A stretch of 64,000 nt of DNA, taken from NCBI GenBank assembly GCA_028534125.1, contig CM052816.1:61692001-61756000 (forward strand), written 5' to 3'. The DNA is from Lama glama (Eukaryota). Under the pieces are notes generated by a model, which was given only the letters and a program-made list of their open reading frames with translations, searched no databases and was not told where the DNA came from. Below, in pieces: positions 3,077 to 58,520 of this stretch. The stretch's first letter is position 1, and every line of letters begins with the position of its first letter. A program made the translations under genes and the position numbers.

Positions 3077-5319
3077 ATTTCAGCTTGTAAGAATGATTCA
3101 GATGGAAGTTGTCTATTCCCTGAAAAGCTGGTGTTAACTCACAGTAGGAGGAATGTATCCCTTGGAACACCACAGTACATTATCCAGATTTTCCAGGTAG
3201 CATCCAGGATTGAGATACTTTGTTGCATCATTGTTACCCTCCTCAGAGGATGCATCTATTTGTGGTATTTCAGTAACATGTAAATGCAAGGCCTCAGTTA
3301 TTTCGGGGGGGGGGGGTCTATCCCCAGATGCCACTAGCCAACTATTCTGAGGCTAGAAAGGAAGTCCCAATTGGCCACTGCCAGATACCTTCAGTCACAT
3401 GGCCCACAATTTTCTTGCCCTCTCCTCCTTTTGCCTCCCATGTGAATTCTTTAGACTAGAAGAAGATGCAAAATACTTCACTGTGGAAAGGGTGTTGAAC
3501 AAAGGGTTCGTGCTTGAGGGATTTTTCTACTCAGACTCAGTTGGGAGCATAGAAACCTGATGGGCATACCTTTCCACCTTCAGGCCTTCCACCTTCCTCT
3601 TAGGCTGAATCACTTGGCTGAACTGGGGGACATTATGATATGCAAAGGCAGCTCACTATGTGGTTAGAATGAAGCTCAGCAGCTAATATGAAGGTGGCTC
3701 TCCTGCATGATTAGCTCTTTGAGTACTTTCATAGTGACAGCTTCATCAGTTACATAAGATGTGCAATGTCCAAGCATGGTTGTGCTTTAATCCACCTACC
3801 CCATGCCCTTCCTCTACACATTCGATCTTATACATTAGAAGAAATCAGGTAAGCCGGTTAGATAGTCCCCAAGTCATCCTAGGAGCCAAAAGTCCTGGGA
3901 CCAGCTATTTTAACCTACTGCATTTGCAAAGAGTGGTTCTGCCAGGAGTCAGGGAGAAGGGAATAGCAAGAAACGAGGCTCGCCTTAGCTTGGATTCCTC
4001 GGATTCAAGCCTATCTTCTCAACTACATTTGTTCTCAAGCTTCCAGTTAAATGTTTCTCTCCCTGTGAAATGTCTAAAGGGCACTTGCCTGCTTCACTGA
4101 CAGCGAGGACAGTCTGCCTGCATAGAGAGTGTGCCGCTCTCCAAGGAGCTCTAGGGTCATCCTTAAGGCCAGGCAATGTTTTTTCGAGTAAATTAGGAAG
4201 AATGTTGGGTATTGATCCTGGTAACAAAAATGTGTGAATTTGTGTGGTAGGGTAAGAGTCGTTACTTTTAAAAGAAGGGAAAAGAAATGTAATTCAGGAA
4301 GAAAAAAAAAAGCATAACCCAGGAGGACTGGAAAATTCTAAACAAGTGATGACAGAAAAAAGATCAGTCACTGAATAAAAAAGTGACAGATAAACTGATT
4401 TGCAATTCTGTCTCATTCATATCATCAGAATGTTTGGGATAAGCTAACATATGTTTTTAAAAAGAACAGCTGTTCATGATGGTTTTGTGCTTCAGACTTC
4501 AAAACCTCAGGCTGGAACTTAAAAGGAAATGATCTTCTCCCATCTCCTTCTCAGAGTGTTATTTCTAGCATTCCTTGTCCCTCATTTCATCCACAGACAA
4601 CGTCTGAGGCCAGAAATGAAACAGTGGTTTGAGGGCTGGCTCCACTCTCGGGGGAACCCAAGGTTATGCCCATATTGTCTCTTGGTGACGGCTTTCCTTA
4701 GGCCACTGAAAGCCTTTAGCTGCGTAGGTGATGAAAGCTAATTTCCATGATAATGTCCTGTCTTCTCCTAAACAGCACCCTGTGATTACAAGAGGACCTA
4801 CTAGCACCTGATGTCCCCAGGTCCAGGGATTATGGAGCCTGAATATTCTCGTTCACCTGAAGACGTGGAACACCATTCCTGACTAGTCAGGTTCCATTGT
4901 CCCAGACCTTAAGGCTTGTGACATGCAATCAAGAGGCCTCTTCTTGGATCTTGGCTTGGATACCTTTCCTTACAGAGAGGTTTCACACAGGAGAAGGCAA
5001 GTTGTCCCACCAGCTCCAGGCTTCCCAGAAGTCAGAGTGCTTCTTCAGGTCAGTGGCTCAAGAGTGAGTGGCATCAGCCAGCCCAAGGCTGATGTATGTT
5101 GGGGGGGAGGGCCTGGTCGGTGCCTTCAGCAAGGGCAGTTGTGGATAGCAAGCGACCTCATGGGCCCATAGAGCAGTAATGGTGAGATGAGGACCCTGAA
5201 ATCCCAAGCAAAGGTAGCAGCAGGAAGCTCCAGTCCAGGGCTAGAGGTGCGGCCTGTTTCTAGAGGGTAGCATCAGCCAGGGTCAGTTACTTACACAGTC
5301 TCCCATGTCCCTGTTGTGC

Positions 5320-21663: not shown

Positions 21664-21763
21664 NNNNNNNNNNNNNNNNNNNNNNNNNNNNNNNNNNNNN
21701 NNNNNNNNNNNNNNNNNNNNNNNNNNNNNNNNNNNNNNNNNNNNNNNNNNNNNNNNNNNNNNN
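21664..21763. other. Assembly gap (100 N)
   Basis: Exactly 100 n; true length unknown. Confidence 1.
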
Positions 21764-26350: not shown

Positions 26351-28069
26351 CATGAATTCTGGTTCACGATGGTTGAAAGATCTGGCAAAGAAGAATCAAA
26401 AAGCTAGTGGCAAAGTGAAAGTGAGAAGACACACTCCCCAATCTCTAAGAAGTTCACCATGTCTCTAACAAGATGAAAACCATCAACAAGTAGTGTGTCA
26501 TAGGTGCCAAAATGAGTTCCAGGAGGGAGGGAGAGAGAAGGAGCTCTATGACTGGGGTGGCCAGAGGATGCAGGACATGAGTAGGTCCAAAGTATTGAGT
26601 AAGATTTGAATAACTGAACACTTGGAGTGGGGGAAGGAATTCCAAGTTGGAGGATTTCATAAACAAGGGAGGAACCACACCAGGAACATTCAGGAGACAT
26701 ATTTATATTGAGGAGTGATGAGGGAGAATTTGGGGAGGGCAAGCTCAGACCAGAAGGAAAGAGCCTTGAACACGAAGCTGAGACATCTGATAATCAATTC
26801 TAGTTAGTAAGGAGCCTTCAAAGATTTTGGATACGCCCTAAAAGAAATTGTCTTCTGTTGCCATTATTTTTTCTTTCACAGCATCTCTGTCAGCCCAGTC
26901 CCTGTTATGTAAATGTATTTCTCTCCTATCTCCCTCTGTTGACTTTGCATTAAAGAACATGAGGTGTGACTCTGACACTCCTTGAGTGTCCAAGTTGATC
27001 TGGGACTGCTCAGAAGCTTTCTCCAACAGGTAGTTAAGTTTTCTTTCCTTCCATCCTATTACTTCCAGTTACATCCCTGAGGGACCGTGTGAAACAATTC
27101 TGTGCTCTCCTCGTGTTTATGTTCTGGGGATGCTTATAGAGTTTCCACATTCCCTCTGCTTTGCGCTTAGCCAAGGTATACATGTTTAATTCCTTTCATC
27201 TCTCCCCCGAAGTCACTCCCTCTGGCCTCTTAATCATCCTAATTGCTCTTCTCTGAACCGCAGCCAACTCAGTGTGTGCATCTTCCTCGGGAGGAACATA
27301 GTATTCCACGTGTGGTCTCACGAGACCCATCTGTTACCTCCCAGTTTCATCATCTGATGGCTGGACCTGTGGGGCTGCACCTCTCCTGCTCTGCCCCACC
27401 CCAGTGTGCACCCTGGGCCTTGGTAAAACCCTTATCACAACAGGTTGTCTTTCCATTTCCAGGTGGCCTGTTCCAGAGCTGGGAACCTGTGTTCACCGCA
27501 TGTTCTCCCCCAAACTCCCATCCCCGGAGGTTTCTTCCTGGGAAAGGTGGCCCGGAACCAGGCAGAGTATCTGTGGAAAATTGCAGCTAAGCTTGCATAA
27601 ATTAGCCTTGGAAGAGGGGAGGCTGAGGAGTGCCCAGGATTGAAGGATGCTGCGGCCTGCTATGAGCTGTGAGCCTATGAGAAGGTGCAACTTGGAGGCT
27701 GCTTCTCTGTTTCCAATTATCCTTTTTATCTCTGCTCTGGCCCCTCTCCTTACCTAAGTGTTTTCATAGCTCTCAGCCATTACTGTTTAGCTTTGGGGAA
27801 TAAACGTGAAACCAAACAAATTATAAATATCCTGTTTCAAGATGTGTTATCACGCTGTGAATAGAAACCCCCAGAAGCCCGAGTCTTTTGAAAGCTCTAG
27901 CCTTTTTTTTTTTTTTTTTTTAAGCCTTGGGGGTAAAAAATCCTCCGCCACTCTAAGGATGTGGTGGCAGAGGTTAAACTGCCTTTGAGAAAGTCAAATG
28001 TTTGGATTTCAGTGAAGGTTGACATGGAAACCCACCTGAGGCTTCCTGAGGCGTCTCGGGAGGAAATAA

Positions 28070-28600
28070 AACCCGAGATGGACGTTCCTGCAGCAAGAGC
28101 AAGAGCGGCTTGGTGGGGCTGCAGGTACGGCCCGCCGCGGGTGAGGGAGGCCCGCCCCGGCGAGGCGACGGAAGTCGGGGGACAGGAAATGTAAAGGCAG
28201 AGAGGGCACCCGTCGCGCCTGTGCCGCAGCCGGGGCAGAGGTGGCCGGCCCGGGACTCGCCAGGGTGGCCGCTGGGAAGCCGATGTTTTTTATTCAAAGC
28301 CTTTTCTGGGAGCAGTTTAACAAACAGCAGCCACCGCAGCCCCAGGGATGGCGCCCACCCGGGGCACCATCCTCCCGCAGAGTCCGGGGCCGCCCCGCCC
28401 GCCTCACCGACGAGGGTGGGGACACGGGGAGAGGGGGTTGCACATCCTGATCAGGCTTCACGCACACCATAGGGTTAATTCAGCCATGGCTACACATAGG
28501 CACAAGGGAACCACAGTGAACATTTGTTTGTTTGTTTGGCTTTTGGGGGTCCTGGGGCGGGTAGAGGAGAAGACGGAGCCGGGCAGACGGAGGAGAAGGG
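28070..28600 (+). promoter_or_regulatory. Small orphan CpG island, candidate promoter/first exon
   Basis: Highest CpG density in the window, several GC boxes, donor-like CAG|GTACGG (28125) and CGG|GTGAGG (28141). Confidence 0.6.
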
Positions 28601-30747
28601 GAGCAAGAGAGAGGAACCCTTAGGAAGAGGAAGGGGCGTCCATCTGCTCGCTTCCCCCCTTTCTTGGATTCCTTGCCCACCGTGGGCCAGGTGGACCAGG
28701 CTTCTGGGATGGACTAACCCTTGCCCTCCAGGCCCTCTGGGACTCTCCGCTTTTACTGCGGGTACTTAAGGATGCCCTTGAAAAGAAATCTTGAGAACCT
28801 CCAAAGAAAAAGTTCTTTGGAGTTTTGAGGGCCTCATACTTCTACAGCCCCTGTTTCTTCCAAATGTGGGTGATCCATTCCATAGAAGGATTGTGAGGAC
28901 GCCCGGTGCCATTTGAACATCAGAGAAATAGGGACGACGTTTTAGTATAAGTACGTCCCACACAATATTTTTCGTTTGTTTGTTTTGCCAAACCTGGCAA
29001 CCCTAGTTCAGTTTGTGTTTATAATTCTTCTAGTTCAGTTCCTGTCCAGACAGCAACTCTTTAAAGCAGGAAGGGGGCATGCTCTCATGCCAACCACCAG
29101 GCACAATCTCCTGTCTTCTCCTTTGTCCCCTCTAAAACTGGTGCAAGTTCACCTTTACTCTAAACCCTCAGGTGTCTTCTGGGGCAGTCGAATGGAGAGA
29201 ACTGAGGTGGGAGTAGAGATTTAGGGGGCAGTAATTTGGGTCACCTAAACCAGCAATTGGAATTTCCAGCGTGAGGTAACATTGCTGGTAAGTGCTGTGT
29301 TCTGGTTTATTGGAGACATTTGCAAGATGTGCTGTGAACATAAGAGTTAAATAGTAATCGCCTTTTGTAAGCGGCAACTCTAACTGGGGTTTACATTTGG
29401 GATTAATAGTAAACACCCCAGGCCTTGCTGACCGAAGAATGTGGTTGCCCGAATAAACAATGTTTTCGATCAGGACTCAGGACCAACGCTCAGAGTACGC
29501 AGCCTCTTCCTAGGAAGGAGTGTTTCCCAACTGAAGTAATCTGTAATGTGCTGGGAAAATATTTTTTAAAAATGGCTATCTTAGATACCATATAAGGGAA
29601 AACAGTTCTCTCTTTTGAAGTAATAAATACCATTTGGAGCAGAATTCCTTCAGTTTGCATTTTTCAATTATTTCCTGATAATGCTCGGCTTATAGTGCCT
29701 GAGCGGTGCGCACTGCCTAGTAAGGAAGAGCCTCATGGAACAGTGTGGGTCTGGGGTTTACTGTCCTCTGAATGCTACACATTCTTCTTGGGACGTAAAA
29801 CTCAGACTGCCTCCCACGTACTGGCTTCATGGGGCTGGCTGTTCAGATACGGAGTGGAAGGCCTCTCAGACTGTGGAATTCTGTTACGTAGTCCCCCAGC
29901 AGCCATTGTTCCTTCAGCCTCCCCACCAAAGGGGTAGAATGAATTATCAGTATTTCCCAAGGAATACCAACTTTCCAACTAACTAGCTGCCTTCCTCTCC
30001 TTCCCATCCTGGCCTGGACATCACACACTGGATTTCAGAGACACTGCACTTTGACTAGAAACATGAATGTGCCGAGAAGCACAGAAAATATGTTGTTGTT
30101 CTACTGGGAGGTCTCAAACGGCTCCAGGAGGACTCTCTTGAAAGGGCTCGGGCTCTCAGTCAGCTCCACAACTGCTGCTTGCTCTGCCCCCTGGTGCATG
30201 TGTGTGCGACTCAGCTGGTCCACTAAGGAATTCCTTCCTCCCCACTTCCAGGTGATGCTGTGAGCAGCTTTGGAGGATCCTGCTTCCCAGGGGCCCAGGG
30301 AATGTTTCCCACTCTTTGTGTCCTGTGCCTAAGGCTTGGAGGGGAAACCAAAGACTTGGATTCCTTTCCAATTCATTCCTTCAGCAAATATTTGTTGATT
30401 TCCTACTGAGTCCACATCACTCTTCACCACGCTGTCAAGGGAGGCAGGCTTGTGGATAAATGTAGGGTTCTGAGTCATGGGGGGGGGAGTGGTGAGGGGT
30501 TGGGGGTGGCAAGGAGGAAGCTTGGGAATGTGGGACTTCAGCAACAGTAAAGCTGCTGTATGCCCAGAGCCTTGCACTGCGCTTGGCACTAAGCGGAGGC
30601 TCAGAAAAATATCTGTTAAATATTTCTGAGGATGAAATATTCTGGGTGGTTTTTTGTTATCCCTAAACTAACTCTTTTTCATCTCATTAAATAACTCTTT
30701 ATTAATACTATCTTAGTAATATTATGTACTAAACAAAGTGAATTTTC

Positions 30748-31162
30748 TTTTTTTTTTTGAGTAAAAGTAGATTTATTTAGAGAGGTGTACACGCTGGGGT
30801 GGGTATACACTCCATCGACAGAGTGCGGGCTGTCTTCATGTAGTGTTGCTACTTTTATATGCTAACAAGTGAGAGGATTATTCTAACTACTTTAGGGAAT
30901 GGGCAGGGATTCCCAGAAATTGGGAATTGCTCTCTCTTTGACCTTTCATGCTTAGCTTGGAAACTGTCATGGCACTTGTGGGTGTGTCATTCACCATGCT
31001 AGTACATTATAATGGGTATAATGAAGTTTAAGGTCCACTGGAGGTCAAATCTCCCGCCATCTTGGGCCTCCAGGTCTGTTGGGAGTTGACTTTTCCATCT
31101 TGGTGCTAATTGCTGTGTCATTACTTTAATGGCTGTGTCCTGCCCCCTTCCTTCCTGTCTCA
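30748..31162 (-). mobile_element. MER41-like ERV1 LTR (U3-R only) with poly(A) tail
   Basis: Minus strand starts TGAGACAGGAAGGAAGGGGGCAGG; has CAAGATGGCGG, GAS TTCTGGGAA, TATAAAA (~30859-30853), AATAAA (30777-30772), then A11. Confidence 0.8.
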
Positions 31163-31276
31163 TTCCTTTTTTTTTTTTTTTTTAGGTGGTTAAAAACCTG
31201 GCAGCATGTCAGACTCGTTCTAATCTTGGATGGTGTCTGCCTGGTAGTGAGGGAGTCCTCAGTCAGAGGTGTTGTA

Positions 31277-31409
31277 TTTTATTATTTTTTTTTTTAAGAT
31301 TTTTTTGTGGGGGAGGTAATTAGGTTTATTTATTTTAATGGCAGAACTGGGGATTGAATCCAGGACCTCATGCTTGCTAAGCATTCTACCACTGAGCCAT
31401 ACCTTCCCC
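31277..31409 (-). mobile_element. Vic-1-type camelid tRNA-derived SINE with 13-bp TSD
   Basis: rc GGGGAAGGTATGGCTCAGTGGTAGA...GGATTCAATCCCCAG...AAATAAACCTAATTACCTCCCCC plus A-rich tail; TSD CAGAGGTGTTGTA at 31264-31276 and 31412-31424. Confidence 0.92.
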
Positions 31410-32089
31410 GCCAGAGGTGTTGTAGAAGGCTGGGTGAGTGTGCACTGACCCAGGGACAGGTGTGGCTCTTCTGAAGGAATCCCTTTCTTGGTCGAGATGC
31501 TGTGTCTCACTGAATCCAGCATGTGAGGTTTGGGGTCAGGATGGGAAGGAGAGTAAAGTAGTGGGTAGAGAGCTGTTACTCCCTGGGAGCCCTGCTAATT
31601 CACACTGTCTAGCCCATGGCAACACACAGGTGGTTTAGGTTTGCTTGAGTAAAGTGGGCTGGCCTCTCTTCAGTCTTTGGCTGGCTCTTGAGAACATATC
31701 TGGGAGACACCTATCAAATCACATGGCTGGCTGCACCTTGCATGAAATTTTAAGAAAAAGTTTGCCCAAGAGCTAACGTGTGAAACAATGCTACTGACTT
31801 TTCAAACAATTAAATACTATTTGGCAAACAATTAGATATTTAAGTCTAGAACGTGAGTACATTCCACAGTGACCAGTGTGGTGGGAGAGGGAGACAGAGG
31901 AAAAGGCTCTGTCTCTACCCGCTGGGAGCTTGTAGTGTAGTTGAGGATTCACAGCAAAAACCCAAAAAACAACCAAGTACCATTTTGGGGAAGAGTAGAG
32001 AAGGCAGAGAAAGGCATGGGTCTAAACTTAAAAAAAAAAGATCTTTTGTGCTGAGTCTAGTTTCACTTGCTCGCAGGGCACCACGTTCA

Positions 32090-32345
32090 GAGGCCTCACA
32101 CCTGGCCCTTCGGACCAGCGTCCTTAGTGCAAACAGCTGCGCGGACACCACTTCTCCAGCCGAGTGCGCATGACACTGGCGATTCAAGGTGGCGGCAGCG
32201 GGGGGGTGGGGCACGCCTTTGCGTGACCCGCGAGAGCTCCGCCCCTTTCCCGCCCCCACGAGGCGAACCCTATATAAAGCAGCGCTGCGTGGCCCGCGCT
32301 TTGGCGTCGCCATTCTCTGACCGAGGTGCCATGCTTTTCTTTGCT
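32090..32345 (+). promoter_or_regulatory. CpG-rich TATA-box promoter candidate
   Basis: Two GC boxes (32239-32244, 32250-32255) directly upstream of TATATAAAG (32271-32279); Inr-like CCATTCT 32310-32316. Confidence 0.65.
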
Positions 32346-32969
32346 TCTGAACCCAACTCGGTTTCCTTGAACAACACTGGGCAGGAAAACCCTTACTGGG
32401 GTCCCACTGGTAGGGGCGATAACAATAGGATACTAATCACCGGCCAGGCCCTGTGCTAAAAGGACTGAGCAGACGGTTTCCACAGTCCTCATAAGAGCTC
32501 TGTTGTACCTGTGCTGCGGGGGCCCCATTTTCTACGTGAGAAAACTGAGCCATGTGAAAGTAACTGGCCCCACGTGGGGCGTGGAGGAGAAAACACGTGT
32601 GCTGAAGGTAAGGAAGGGGGGGGGATTGTGGCTTAGAGCGAAAAACACCGTTTCCTCTCCCCCTTCTCTTTACAGCGCAGATAATAATTCCGACCTTTCA
32701 GGATTGGTAGGCGGGATAAATGAGAGTGTTTGTGAACCTCCTGAGCTGCCTGGTGCTCAGTGGGAAGTCAGACCGCATTAGGAAAAGGGGGGCGAGGACC
32801 GGCAAGGCACAGAGGCGACTTTGACTTGGCTAATGGAGCAGTGGGAGGTAAACGTGGAAAGGAAGAGCAGCCTGGAAGAGCAGCCTGGTTCATAGAGAAC
32901 TTTGAAACCTGAAAGGGAGGGTGGGGATTGATGTGGCATTAGATCCTTTAACAAAAGTGATTGTTCTTT

Positions 32970-33610
32970 TTTTTATTTTAAAAGTAGTATCTACTCATGA
33001 ATATTTTGGGGGAAAAAAGTAGAAAGTATAAAGATAAAAATAAAATAGTTTTACCACCCGGAGATACCCACTTAGAACTTTTTTGTATCCTTAACTTTGA
33101 TCCTAACTTTATGAAGTGTGTTACAAAATACGAAATTATGGTATTAACTTTATGAAATAAAGTGTTTATAGGCATAGTGTATAAATACTTAAAATATTCT
33201 TTATGATTATACTGTAGAAGAAAGACCTTTTTTCACTTTGTTGTGAACATTTTTCTCATCACTCGATAATATTTTTTAAAGAGTTTTTAAGGCTATAGAA
33301 TATTAATAAAGTAGAAGAACCATAATATACTTAAAAGTTTCTGTTGGCTATTTATATTGTTTCCAGTCTTTCACTATTAGAAATAGCACTGTGATGAATA
33401 TCTTTATACATGAAAACTTTAACTGCATTAAAAATTATTTCTTTAGGCTGAATTCCTAGAAATAGAGACACTAGGTCAAAGAGTGTAAGTGTTTTTAGGT
33501 CTCTTGATTCCAGTTGTCACTTTCCAGTTACCACCCCTGAAGGTAACTACTCTTCTGACTCCTGTCACCATCTGTTAGTTTTGCCCGGTTTTAAACTTTA
33601 TATAAACAGA
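32970..33610 (-). mobile_element. L1ME-type LINE fragments
   Basis: atattgtttccagtctttcactattagaaatagcactgtgatgaatatcttt...attcctagaaatagag is antisense old L1. Confidence 0.7.
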
Positions 33611-33879
33611 TCCTGGAGATTATTTTGTTTCACTTGTTTAGTTATCCTGAAATAAGAGAGAGATCCAGATCTGGTGTTAGCCGAAGTGGTGATTCCCTTG
33701 TCTCTTTCACTGTATTCTTGAGTAGATAGGTTCTCCTTCTCCGAGTCCCAGCACTGGTGCAGTCAGCAAAGTATACACCCAAGTTTCCTAGAAGGTGGAA
33801 TTGTTACACTCTTCTCTCCCATCTCTCTGATTCCTTAATACTCTGAACCTATGGTGCATGAAAAACATAAGTTCCAGCA

Positions 33880-34345
33880 CATACAAACCCAAAACCATAG
33901 GATTTGGTTCAGGGTATGAAATAGAAAAATTACAGCCGCTTACAAGAGATAGAAATGTATTTCCTTCTCACACAGGAGACCAAAGACATGCAGCCCAAGA
34001 CTGACGTGAAAGTACTGTTCCACCGAGTCTTAAGACAACCCAGGTTCTTTTCAGCTTTCTGCCTCACCATACCTTGGGTGTGGTACTCATTCTTGGGGTC
34101 CAAAGCAGCCATTAGAATGCTGGGCAGAATGGAAAAAGGAATGAAGAAAAGGGGGCAAAGAGAATGCACTCTTAAAGAGACTTATGCATCTTTGACTTAA
34201 ATGCCACTGGTTCACGGGGACACCTAGGTGAAGGGGGAGCTTAGGTATGGAGTCTCCATTCTTGGAAGCCATTTTTTAACTATGCACTCTTTCCAGAGAA
34301 GGTCAGAATAAATATGGGGGAGGGCAACCAGAAGTCCCTGCCTCC
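33880..34345 (-). mobile_element. MLT1J-like MaLR LTR
   Basis: acaagagatagaaatgtatttccttctcac...acccaggttcttttcagctttctgcctcaccatacctt...gggcaaccagaagtccctgcc. Confidence 0.7.
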
Positions 34346-55800: not shown

Positions 55801-56230
55801 ATGGGGCAGTGCTTCTGCCGTGAGGTCCAGAAGTTTTAAGAACTGGAATCACCATCTGCAGGTGGGAGGGCTCCCTGTGACTCACAAGCTGTGTTGTAGG
55901 ACAGAAATGACACAGGCAACTGAGTTCTAATCAAACTTTATGATTTGTTCTGTATCACACAGCCTTTTGGTTTTGATCTCCGTGTTCATTGCTACTATTG
56001 TCAGTTGAAGCCAGCCTACTCATTAAAGAAGCAATAGGGCATCAAGCAAAAAAGAATGAAAAAACATAGATTTGGAAGTTAAGCTATCTGCATTCAAATC
56101 TATTGTTTTCTACCTGTGTGCCCTAGGATGAGTTAACCTCAGTCTCTCTAAGCTTCAGTTTTCTTCCATGAAAAATTGGTAACATGACTAATATCAAGCT
56201 TCATAGGGTGGCTGTGAAGATTATTATTGG
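52890..56230. mobile_element. Several separate MIR copies (~52890-53040 -, ~54150-54390 +, ~54890-55090 -, ~56070-56230 +)
   Basis: MIR cores such as ggcacagaggtgaagtgtcttgcccagatcacagagctgg and ctttgagctgcaatttcctcaccccgaaaaatgggg. Confidence 0.75.
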
Positions 56231-58129
56231 TAGTAAATGTACAATAGAGGACTGATTAAACAAATGAGCCATGTGATAGAATGCCATATAGTCATAAAAA
56301 ACCATGCTGTAGGAGATGATGCATGTAGAGCAGTTAGCACTTGCAATACCCCCTGAACATCGTTATTGTGGAGGTGGCGGCTGGTGACCATTTGTTCCAA
56401 GAAAACTTGATGTCTTCCTGTCAGCTGGAAGGAGAATGGCAGGTGTTGGGGTCACTTGCATTTAAACTCGATTGGCTAGTGATTTGGGCCAGAGAAGGAA
56501 AGGCTGACGGGAAGGGACTGAGACCCAGTGATGCTGTTGACATTCACACTAGCAGACTCAGTTTGTAATCTGGTCCAGCCAGCTTGATTCAAAATCAGTC
56601 TCTCCACAGGAATTTCACACATGCAAATGAGAATTTCGATGGTCCTTGGAAAATAACCTCTAGTTTAGTCTACACAGCCCTGCCAGTTGAGAGCCAAAGT
56701 CCCCAGGGGGTCCAGGTACACTGCACAGTTGCTCTCGTCCAATCCCAGCCTCGGGAACCACAGGGCCTACCTTCCAGTCCTGGAGGACGCTCTCAGCATT
56801 GCTACTGAGTGAGCAAGCCCTGTGCTTATTTCTGAGCAGAGGGAGCCAGGTAGCACTTAGGCTAGGAAACAAAAGTGAACCCTCATTAGCCCCCAGTGTT
56901 AAGTGATATGTTCAAGCAAAAATGTCAGTTTAACCTTTAAGGATGAGAATCTTTGGTCTATAAAGCCAGCAGGACCCTTTCAAGGTCTACCCATTTACAA
57001 ACTTTTCATGATACAGTCAACATTTTGGATCAGGATTATATGCCTGTAATTATTCACTTACTCCTTGAGAACTTTTATAGATTTTTTTTAACTTTTTTTT
57101 CAGAAGAGTAAAATAGTTGAGCTCTTGGAAATATTTAAGTATAATTTTGCTTTGTTTTATCCAATACATCTGGATTAATTTAGCCCCAGACAAAGATCCA
57201 TTAGCATCAAACAAAACTGTTGCCTTCAAACCATATTTTTGACTAAAAATTTCCACCTTAAAACAAATGATTTTTATATAGTTTGATACAGAGGAGACTC
57301 ATGCATGCTCTTACTTCTTGGATAACCCCTTGACATTTACTTTTTTCCTTCTTTCCCTGAAATGTGGACTATCCTTGGTCTTCTCCCCTCATCTTGTGGT
57401 GTGACTGCAGGCATCTTAGTTACCTCTGTTGGTTTACCTGTCACCTCTATTCAGGTACCATCCAAATAGTGACACTAGGAGAAAAAACAGAATGAGCACT
57501 GCTCCACATGTATCAAGCCTCCGGGATGTTCAAATAGAAAAGTCTAGCAGATGCATGCAGAGACACTCTTAAGCAAAAGCTTTATTCAACTTTCTCTCGT
57601 CTATAATCATTCCTTGAAAAAGCTCCTGTTTGAATAAATCATGAGCCATATCGGTTTGCCAGAGAGACTGATGAAGCAGGTCTATTTTTCTAACTCCTTT
57701 TTTTCCCTAGCCTGTGGGGTCTCCCATTTCATGCTTCTGTTTATCCAAGTTTTATTTACAATATCCTAATAAATCTCTGTGCTCTAGGATCATGTGGACA
57801 TGAAGACAGTTTCAGGGGTTACCCATGAGTGTTGTAATGTTATGAACCATATGGCAATGCTTTACTGTCAAGGACACGGGGATCTCACTGTGTGAGACTG
57901 AAGTCAGGCTTCTTGCTCTGGACTTAAGGAAAGCGATTCAGACAGAGGACCAGATGGAGTCTTACACAGACCCTGTCCAAACCACCACTGGGCTAGGAAT
58001 AGTGAGAAATGCCCATGTTACCCCTTCGATGATGACACGTAGGAAGCAAATTACTTCCATAACAAAAGTGTAAGTAAAAATTCTTATTGTGCAAATGTCC
58101 CCAAGTCTCACCTGCCTGCAGGTATAAAT

Positions 58130-58520
58130 GAAGTCAGATCAGTGTCACTTCCTTAGCCTCCTTCCAAGGAGACTCCCCTCCATCATTTAGGGGAGTCTCC
58201 AGGACTGTCCTACATGGGTTAATATTGATATTATTCTATCTGGACATACATTTGGTATATATTGTTTTGTCATCTCCTTTTTCACTTAGTGTACTGTGAA
58301 CTTTCTCCTATGGGTAGATATTTTTTCTGTAGCATGATTTTTTACGACTATATGGTATTCCATCACATGGCTAATTTGTTTAATCAGTCCTCTATTATTG
58401 TACATTTACTACCAATAATAAGTAATTCTTTGGTGATTGTCTTTGCACACACCTCTAATTGTCCTGAAATAATTTCTGGACATAGAATTGCTTGGCCAAG
58501 GCTGTGCTCATCATAAAGTG
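58130..58520 (-). mobile_element. L1ME-type fragment
   Basis: atggtattccatcacatggctaatttgtttaatcagtcctctattattgtacattta; agaattgcttggccaagg. Confidence 0.6.

Follow-up and report, generated by a model that had tools for sequence, protein, structure and literature searches.

The window (the whole 64-kb stretch of DNA analysed here) has a mammalian-type base composition, with a GC content of 44% and a CpG observed/expected ratio of 0.28, and contains a 404 bp LTR-like element on its minus strand (Table 1). By its layout we take the element to be an ERV1/MER41-like LTR, and LTR anatomy would place the LTR edge at the TGAG start and leave U5 missing. The last non-A base is the C at 30759, 13 nt past the AATAAA (14 nt if one A of the tail is counted), and there is no sequence of U5 length downstream of the signal. 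This copy has no internal retroviral sequence attached to it, and there is no second copy elsewhere in the 64-kb window. Re-reading of the sequence confirms the minus-strand anatomy given in the original prediction, with its LTR edge, TATA box, AATAAA, 13 nt interval and A11 run.

Table 1. Coordinates of the LTR-like element and of the features within and beside it (window positions).
Feature	Position	Strand	Remarks
LTR-like element, 404 bp	30759..31162	-	putative U3-R part; starts TGAGACAGG at 31162, ends at the poly(A) site
A17 run of the 5' flank (T17 on +)	31167..31183	-	from the sequence
GGAA between A17 and element start	31163-31166	-	from the sequence
TATA box, TATAAAA	30853..30859	-	from the sequence
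AATAAA polyadenylation signal	30772..30777	-	from the sequence
A11, then GAAAATTC	30748..30758	-	remnant of a poly(A), 3' copy of the duplication, or both
Target-site duplication, 5' copy, A11-GGAA	31163..31177	-	14/15 match to 30744-30758
Target-site duplication, 3' copy, A11-GAAA	30744..30758	-	sequence match
L1 endonuclease-type nick site, TTTT/AG	31180..31185	+	reads CT/AAAA on the strand of the element
YY1-like word CAAGATGG, first copy	31095..31102	-	word found in the sequence
YY1-like word CAAGATGG, second copy	31057..31064	-	word found in the sequence
GAS-type word TTCCCAGAA	30910..30918	+	word found in the sequence

Two short words within the element resemble transcription factor sites. 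The label of YY1 on both copies of CAAGATGG is our assumption, and GAS-type words such as TTCCCAGAA occur in the window at chance frequency (29 seen versus 25.3 expected, with one in the element); no evidence of function is drawn from it.

The best long duplication around the element spans 15 nt with 14 matches, and the nick-type site lies beside its 5' copy; the near-duplicated flanks and the TTTT/AG motif of the original prediction are thus both present. Because the duplication takes up all 11 A residues, a separate poly(A) tail is not provable from this copy alone. The long duplication, the nick-type site and the tailed relatives described below support insertion of a polyadenylated LTR RNA end by L1 machinery, as first proposed, and this copy was almost certainly inserted by L1.

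Alternatively, the element could be a regular solo LTR whose U5 is extremely short (TGAG...CTCA) and which integrase put into an existing A tract, a reading that we consider very unlikely. The TG...CA ends do form an inverted repeat of 4 bp as had been noted, but only with one A of the tail counted, and CA is also the usual cleavage dinucleotide, so that 2 bp of coincidence remain. Such an LTR would end only 14 nt past the AATAAA, and the element differs from an integrase-made solo LTR in that 4-, 5- and 6-bp duplication tests at its ends give 2/4, 3/5 and 4/6 matches. The recurrence of the tail is a further argument against it, as a minimum of 38 relatives run out into T-runs and flanks unrelated to one another, where about one is expected (see below).

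The locus in public sequence data

Between 61 and 74% of the sampled words are present in 20 public runs, which carry five organism labels and come from seven studies, with next to none in runs X21-X23. Four public DNA runs (X1, X2, X3 and X14), one for each of four organism labels, were compared by aligning their contigs at a likeness of at least 80%; the aligned pieces end just short of the 5' edge of the element, and the simple-repeat stretch at the 5' junction is skipped.

A single-copy contig from the left flank passes through the T11 run into the element in all four runs. On the right flank, single-copy depth extends up to the element edge in two of the four (X1 and X2) and is seen only further out in X3; right-flank cover is absent in X14, which is not counted as evidence. 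Given that single-copy contigs and depth span the edges between flank and element, the locus is no assembly artefact, and no empty allele is present among the joints listed (15 of 54). Position 30739, in single-copy flank, is a C in all four runs and a T in the window, reflecting either a private allele or an assembly error.

The element is multi-copy, with a depth of ~90-2800 times that of the flank in the tabulated bins, and 2162-2413 contigs per run align to its region at 80% likeness or more, ~80% of these contigs being less than 95% alike. In X1 this copy differs from the majority depth at 19 of the 39 element positions listed, and a hand count over the positions listed gives a divergence from the majority of at least 8% over 30884-31123. 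This divergence from its relatives, together with the recurrence in the runs, indicates that the copy is old and common to the organisms compared, and it is most likely inert.

The relatives comprise several sequence types, which differ at 30785-30853 and ~30925-30960 as seen from joints and loose ends. Most carry a different stretch of similar length in the TATA-to-R segment (30785-30853), such that the copy in the window would be a minority subtype or a recombinant. One relative is represented by a contig over 30853-31145 at ~13 (X2) and 6 (X3) times flank depth, with indel entries also in X1 and zero in X14, which suggests a copy-variable or sex-linked amplified locus. This multi-copy contig runs 224 nt past 30853 in X2 and X3, which might have hinted at a U5, a reading that we dropped because the zero indel entries in X14 are the pattern of a copy-variable duplication. 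The 5' and 3' blocks of the element are equal in depth (2464-2807 and 2319-2813 flank units, respectively) without a fall-off from 3' to 5', which is compatible either with full-length tailed copies having a fixed 5' end, or with solo LTRs occurring alongside longer pseudogenes.

Recurrence of the tailed 3' end

Contigs depart from the window sequence as loose ends at 30748, the outer edge of the T-run, with 38 such contigs in X3 and 39 in X14. These have a median length of 255 nt and begin with the T-run, and their agreement with one another is 0.42 (X3) and 0.41 (X14), as compared to 0.55-0.83 for the other 22 loose-end rows listed, all of which lie inside the element. The rows listed are 24 of 964, six per run, and include the 30748 row in X3 and X14 and not in X1 and X2. 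The low agreement past 30748 and the longer T-runs point to insertions at separate sites, every one of them tailed and set in a different flank. The bin covering the outer T-run (30729-30752) has 154-196 times flank depth in all four runs, and the ratio of its depth to that of the next bin is 0.066-0.071 across the four.

Only 39 of the 127,880 cut points in the window directly precede 11 A residues, and among the ~3,700-4,200 MER41_Vpa-type copies listed for camelids ~1.1-1.3 chance LTR insertions before an A11 are expected. There is no U5-type loose end among the rows listed (24 of 964), an absence that is weakened in that U5-bearing copies may match too briefly to be aligned. The tailed 3' end is recurrent at many loci with unrelated flanks, a recurrence that the original prediction had raised as a condition; the feature is real, L1-made and recurrent.

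The number of tailed copies was estimated by simulation. In toy simulations of unitigs from random-letter families with the same geometry (8 settings, two replicates each), the observed depth ratio needs a tailed share of ~0.3-1.0. Copy counts and loose contigs were simulated in 24 single runs, in which the 736-937 flank units on 30748-30752 correspond to ~150-1000 tailed copies and the 38-39 loose contigs to ~60-110, estimates to be read with the provisos that contig depth does not equal copy number, that the assembler's repeat simplification is ignored, and that the ranking and minimum match of the alignment are not known. When 70% of the simulated copies bear U5, U5-type loose contigs are about equal to or above the tailed ones in 8/8 settings. 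Dozens of tailed copies are certain, and there are probably hundreds.

The family signal could in principle be inflated by unrelated poly(A)-tailed L1 and SINE ends that align to an AT-rich stretch at 80% likeness, leaving this copy as a one-off L1 retrocopy. Sequence complexity is indeed low in the T11 run and the 30 nt of the element next to it, the window contains a chance 36-nt look-alike of the left junction at 32954-32987, and we presume that some L1 3' ends are ~75-80% like this stretch. We nonetheless regard this explanation as improbable, as depth, worked out by hand from the X1 bins, is still ~2,000 flank units at 30777-30784, where an L1 tail would cease to match, and 33 contigs (X1 and X14) exit the window only at 30784. 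Joints also tie the 3' block to the LTR body at 30852-30873, there is no indel row at the 3' end among those listed (12 of 24), and the depth ratio given above is equal in the four runs.

Proposed origin of the element

On balance we lean towards interpreting the element as an L1-made processed pseudogene of a MER41-like ERV RNA, truncated and of U3-R-poly(A) structure, in the manner of HERV-W. A Pol II RNA that ends U3-R-poly(A) at the LTR AATAAA would arise from a MER41-like (ERV1) provirus or by upstream read-through into an LTR; L1 ORF2p would nick the target at TTTT/AG, prime on the poly(A) and copy the RNA. Copying would stop ~400 nt in, at the purine tract before U3, where the A/G tract of the RNA could pair with the A-run-plus-G end of the target, and the ~15-bp duplication would arise at insertion. 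The same route would have yielded dozens to hundreds of tailed copies in the lineage, many family members then being L1 processed pseudogenes and not solo LTRs. The parts of this scheme that we infer are the source of the RNA, the 5' joining by microhomology, the name of the family and the number of copies.

The spacing from the TATA box would put the LTR start site near 30825-30830, in which case LTR-driven RNA would lack U3 and include only ~70 nt of R. The template would therefore have begun upstream, with the copied part being either the 3' LTR of a provirus or a solo LTR entered by read-through.

The GGAA that precedes the TG may be read in three ways: as the end of a duplication with one substitution, as a remnant of the purine tract retained by microhomology, or as a duplication followed by a cap G and an RNA starting AATG. 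Truncated L1 insertions are described as joining by microhomology and full-length ones as typically having an extra G at the 5' junction (PMC11702581, in the portion of the text available). That microhomology joins truncated insertions weakens the initial argument against truncation as the cause of a 5' end at the PPT/U3 border; the putative purine tract would resemble an A-run-plus-G target, and truncation could accordingly be drawn to that border.

The HERV-W-like interpretation is favoured by the A-rich duplication with 14 of 15 matches, the lack of a 4-6 bp duplication and the end 13-14 nt past the AATAAA, and also by the 38 and 39 tailed contigs against ~1 expected, with no U5-type end among the rows listed. 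In an earlier HERV-W set, as far as it is presented in the available text (PMC5016936), the 0-0.5 kb class is the commonest. It is weakened by the variable 5' truncation of the relatives being an assumption, by the even depth from 3' to 5' and the lack of internal retroviral sequence in this copy, and by the 30748 row being among those listed in only two of the four runs.

A different course of events, to which we attach distinctly less weight, is that transcription started at U3 or just before it at one or a few source loci, from a flanking or internal promoter, and that L1 then turned these RNAs into many full-length copies of U3-R-poly(A) type sharing one 5' end, a SINE-like family made of LTR only. 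In that case the junction might consist of a duplication (An-G), then a G derived from the cap, then an RNA that starts AATG, an extra 5' G being typical of full-length L1-made copies according to the part available of PMC11702581. Several of the observations above are in keeping with such a family: this copy starts at the putative LTR edge, its 5' and 3' blocks are equal in depth, many copies have a tail and unrelated flanks, the tailed share reaches up to 1.0 in the toy model, and the simulated mix with 70% U5-bearing copies predicts U5-type loose contigs, of which there are none among the rows listed. SVA also provides a precedent for an ERV-derived poly(A) end serving a trans-mobilised family (PMC3287187, in part). 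However, U5-bearing copies are perhaps too short in their match to be aligned, the aligned pieces stop before the 5' flanks of the relatives, and the several sequence types would suit many proviral sources better than one master. The element also differs from a SINE in having no Pol III promoter head, with no match to two A- and B-box patterns; the A-box pattern matches a neighbouring SINE and the B-box pattern does not. That a large share of the annotated MER41-like LTRs in the lineage belong to an L1-dependent, LTR-only family, with hundreds of copies made without integrase and a fixed 5' end at the PPT/U3 border, is a tentative proposal that we think rather doubtful.

Relationship to other L1-mobilised and LTR elements

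The original prediction of retroposition in trans of a U3-R-poly(A) RNA is supported, although it passed over a direct precedent in the processed pseudogenes of HERV-W. As described in the available parts of PMC5016936, these end in U3-R followed by poly(A), are associated with a TT/AAAA motif and a duplication of 5-15 bp, and constitute 135 of 213 elements. The element in the window is similar in its 3' end, putatively without U5, its poly(A), its TT/AAAA-type site (here CT/AAAA), its duplication in the 5-15 bp range and its production in numbers. Two of four HERV-W-type features are found in it, the poly(A) tail (by way of its relatives) and the TT/AAAA-type site with the duplication, and its stop 13-14 nt past the AATAAA may correspond to the third, a HERV-W-type U3-R end. 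Of the fourth, colinearity with a proviral mRNA (internal sequence or an R-U5 5' end in longer copies, and 5' truncation that varies), this copy has no sign. It differs from HERV-W in belonging to another ERV group, presumably in its camelid host and, in this copy, in having the whole of U3 and no internal sequence. HERV-W is described as the sole human group mobilised by L1 at scale, with determinants that are unclear (PMC5537654, in part), and the available text of PMC6995185 reports no processed pseudogenes for the ERV-W of New World monkeys.

MER41-type LTRs are abundant in camelids. In alpaca, MER41_Vpa, MER41B_Vpa and MER41C_Vpa are present in 1715, 978 and 1537 copies (Kelly et al. 2022, PMC9435751), and copies of this group are almost never orthologous outside camelids according to the portions available of the same source. 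The element may resemble them in abundance (more than 2,100 contigs per run), in its GAS-type word and in layout; it differs in that the group is treated there as LTRs, with no mention of tails or of U5 loss in those portions. The bovine MER41_BT is described as having an interferon-responsive U3 (PMC9435751).

Other L1-made copies of ERV sequences share some of these features. The retrocopy of HERV-K(HML-2) at 2q32.1 is likewise derived by L1 from an ERV RNA and has a shortened 3' LTR as well as poly(A) and a duplication, but is a single spliced locus with coding sequence and not a class of tailed LTRs, and single cases of HERV-H retrocopies are cited in the same source (PMC3590776, in the text available). 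The SINE-R end of SVA is similarly ERV-derived, has AATAAA and poly(A) and is moved in trans by L1, whereas SVA as a whole is a composite with a hexamer, an Alu-like part and a VNTR (PMC3287187, in part) and the element here is LTR sequence only.

Searches for further copies

Pattern scans returned 0, 0, 0 and 1 matches in viral contigs, 3 in metagenome contigs and 0 and 1 in genome contigs. All 5 loci are chance matches: three (L001-L003) have no BLAST match, and the other two (L004-L005) matched only the 18-20-nt seed. No copy of the element was found by blastn of plasmids and phages. Open frames that cross the junctions, which are not thought to be genes, gave no match when used as protein probes for the flanks of relatives, and the one Rfam match on 28000-34000 (E 0.79) is of the kind expected by chance.

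In full-text literature, which takes in few subscription papers and neither Repbase Reports nor Dfam comments, MER41-like copies that have a tail and lack U5 are not described for camelids or any other cetartiodactyls. The word 'MER41' is absent from the available text of a camel TE survey (PMC8605555), as is 'processed' from that of a cattle ERV review (PMC13286661).

Implications for ERV mobilisation

Large-scale copying of ERV RNA by L1 is described so far, in the available parts of PMC5537654 and PMC6995185, as peculiar to catarrhine ERV-W. A second, independent case outside primates would offer a comparative test of which 3' sequence, expression or L1 wave suits an ERV RNA to L1. Counts of MER41-like 'solo LTRs' may overstate the number of germline infections in the lineage, and an interferon-responsive U3, such as that reported for bovine MER41_BT (PMC9435751, in part), could have been spread by L1. 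If the 5' ends prove to be fixed, the copies would form an LTR-only family of SINE-like character, consisting of nothing but a retroviral enhancer-promoter.

Neighbouring features of the window

At 31285-31412 on the minus strand, ~100 nt from the element, there is a tRNA-derived SINE that matches the A-box pattern and has an A-rich tail; it is presumably of camelid type, and ARAGORN calls no tRNA there. About 1.1 kb from the 5' end of the element there is a CpG-rich patch on the plus strand (32050-32350; GC 0.63, CpG observed/expected 0.87) that is promoter-like and contains a GC box as well as TATATAAA near 32271. A second CpG-rich patch at 28040-28440 (GC 0.68, observed/expected 0.78) includes an exon-like end near 28125 and a minus-strand AATAAA near 28290. 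The look-alike of the left junction at 32954-32987 is 83% similar over 36 nt, a chance product of low complexity, and stands at the start of an AT-rich stretch that we take to be an old L1 3' end.

Further from the element, the window has an assembly gap of 100 N at 21664-21763. Its sole interspersed self-match at E <1e-6 is an inverted pair of ~90 bp segments (56221-56308 and 58331-58421) that are 91% identical and 2 kb apart, and these may represent either the two termini of a DNA transposon or a small inversion.
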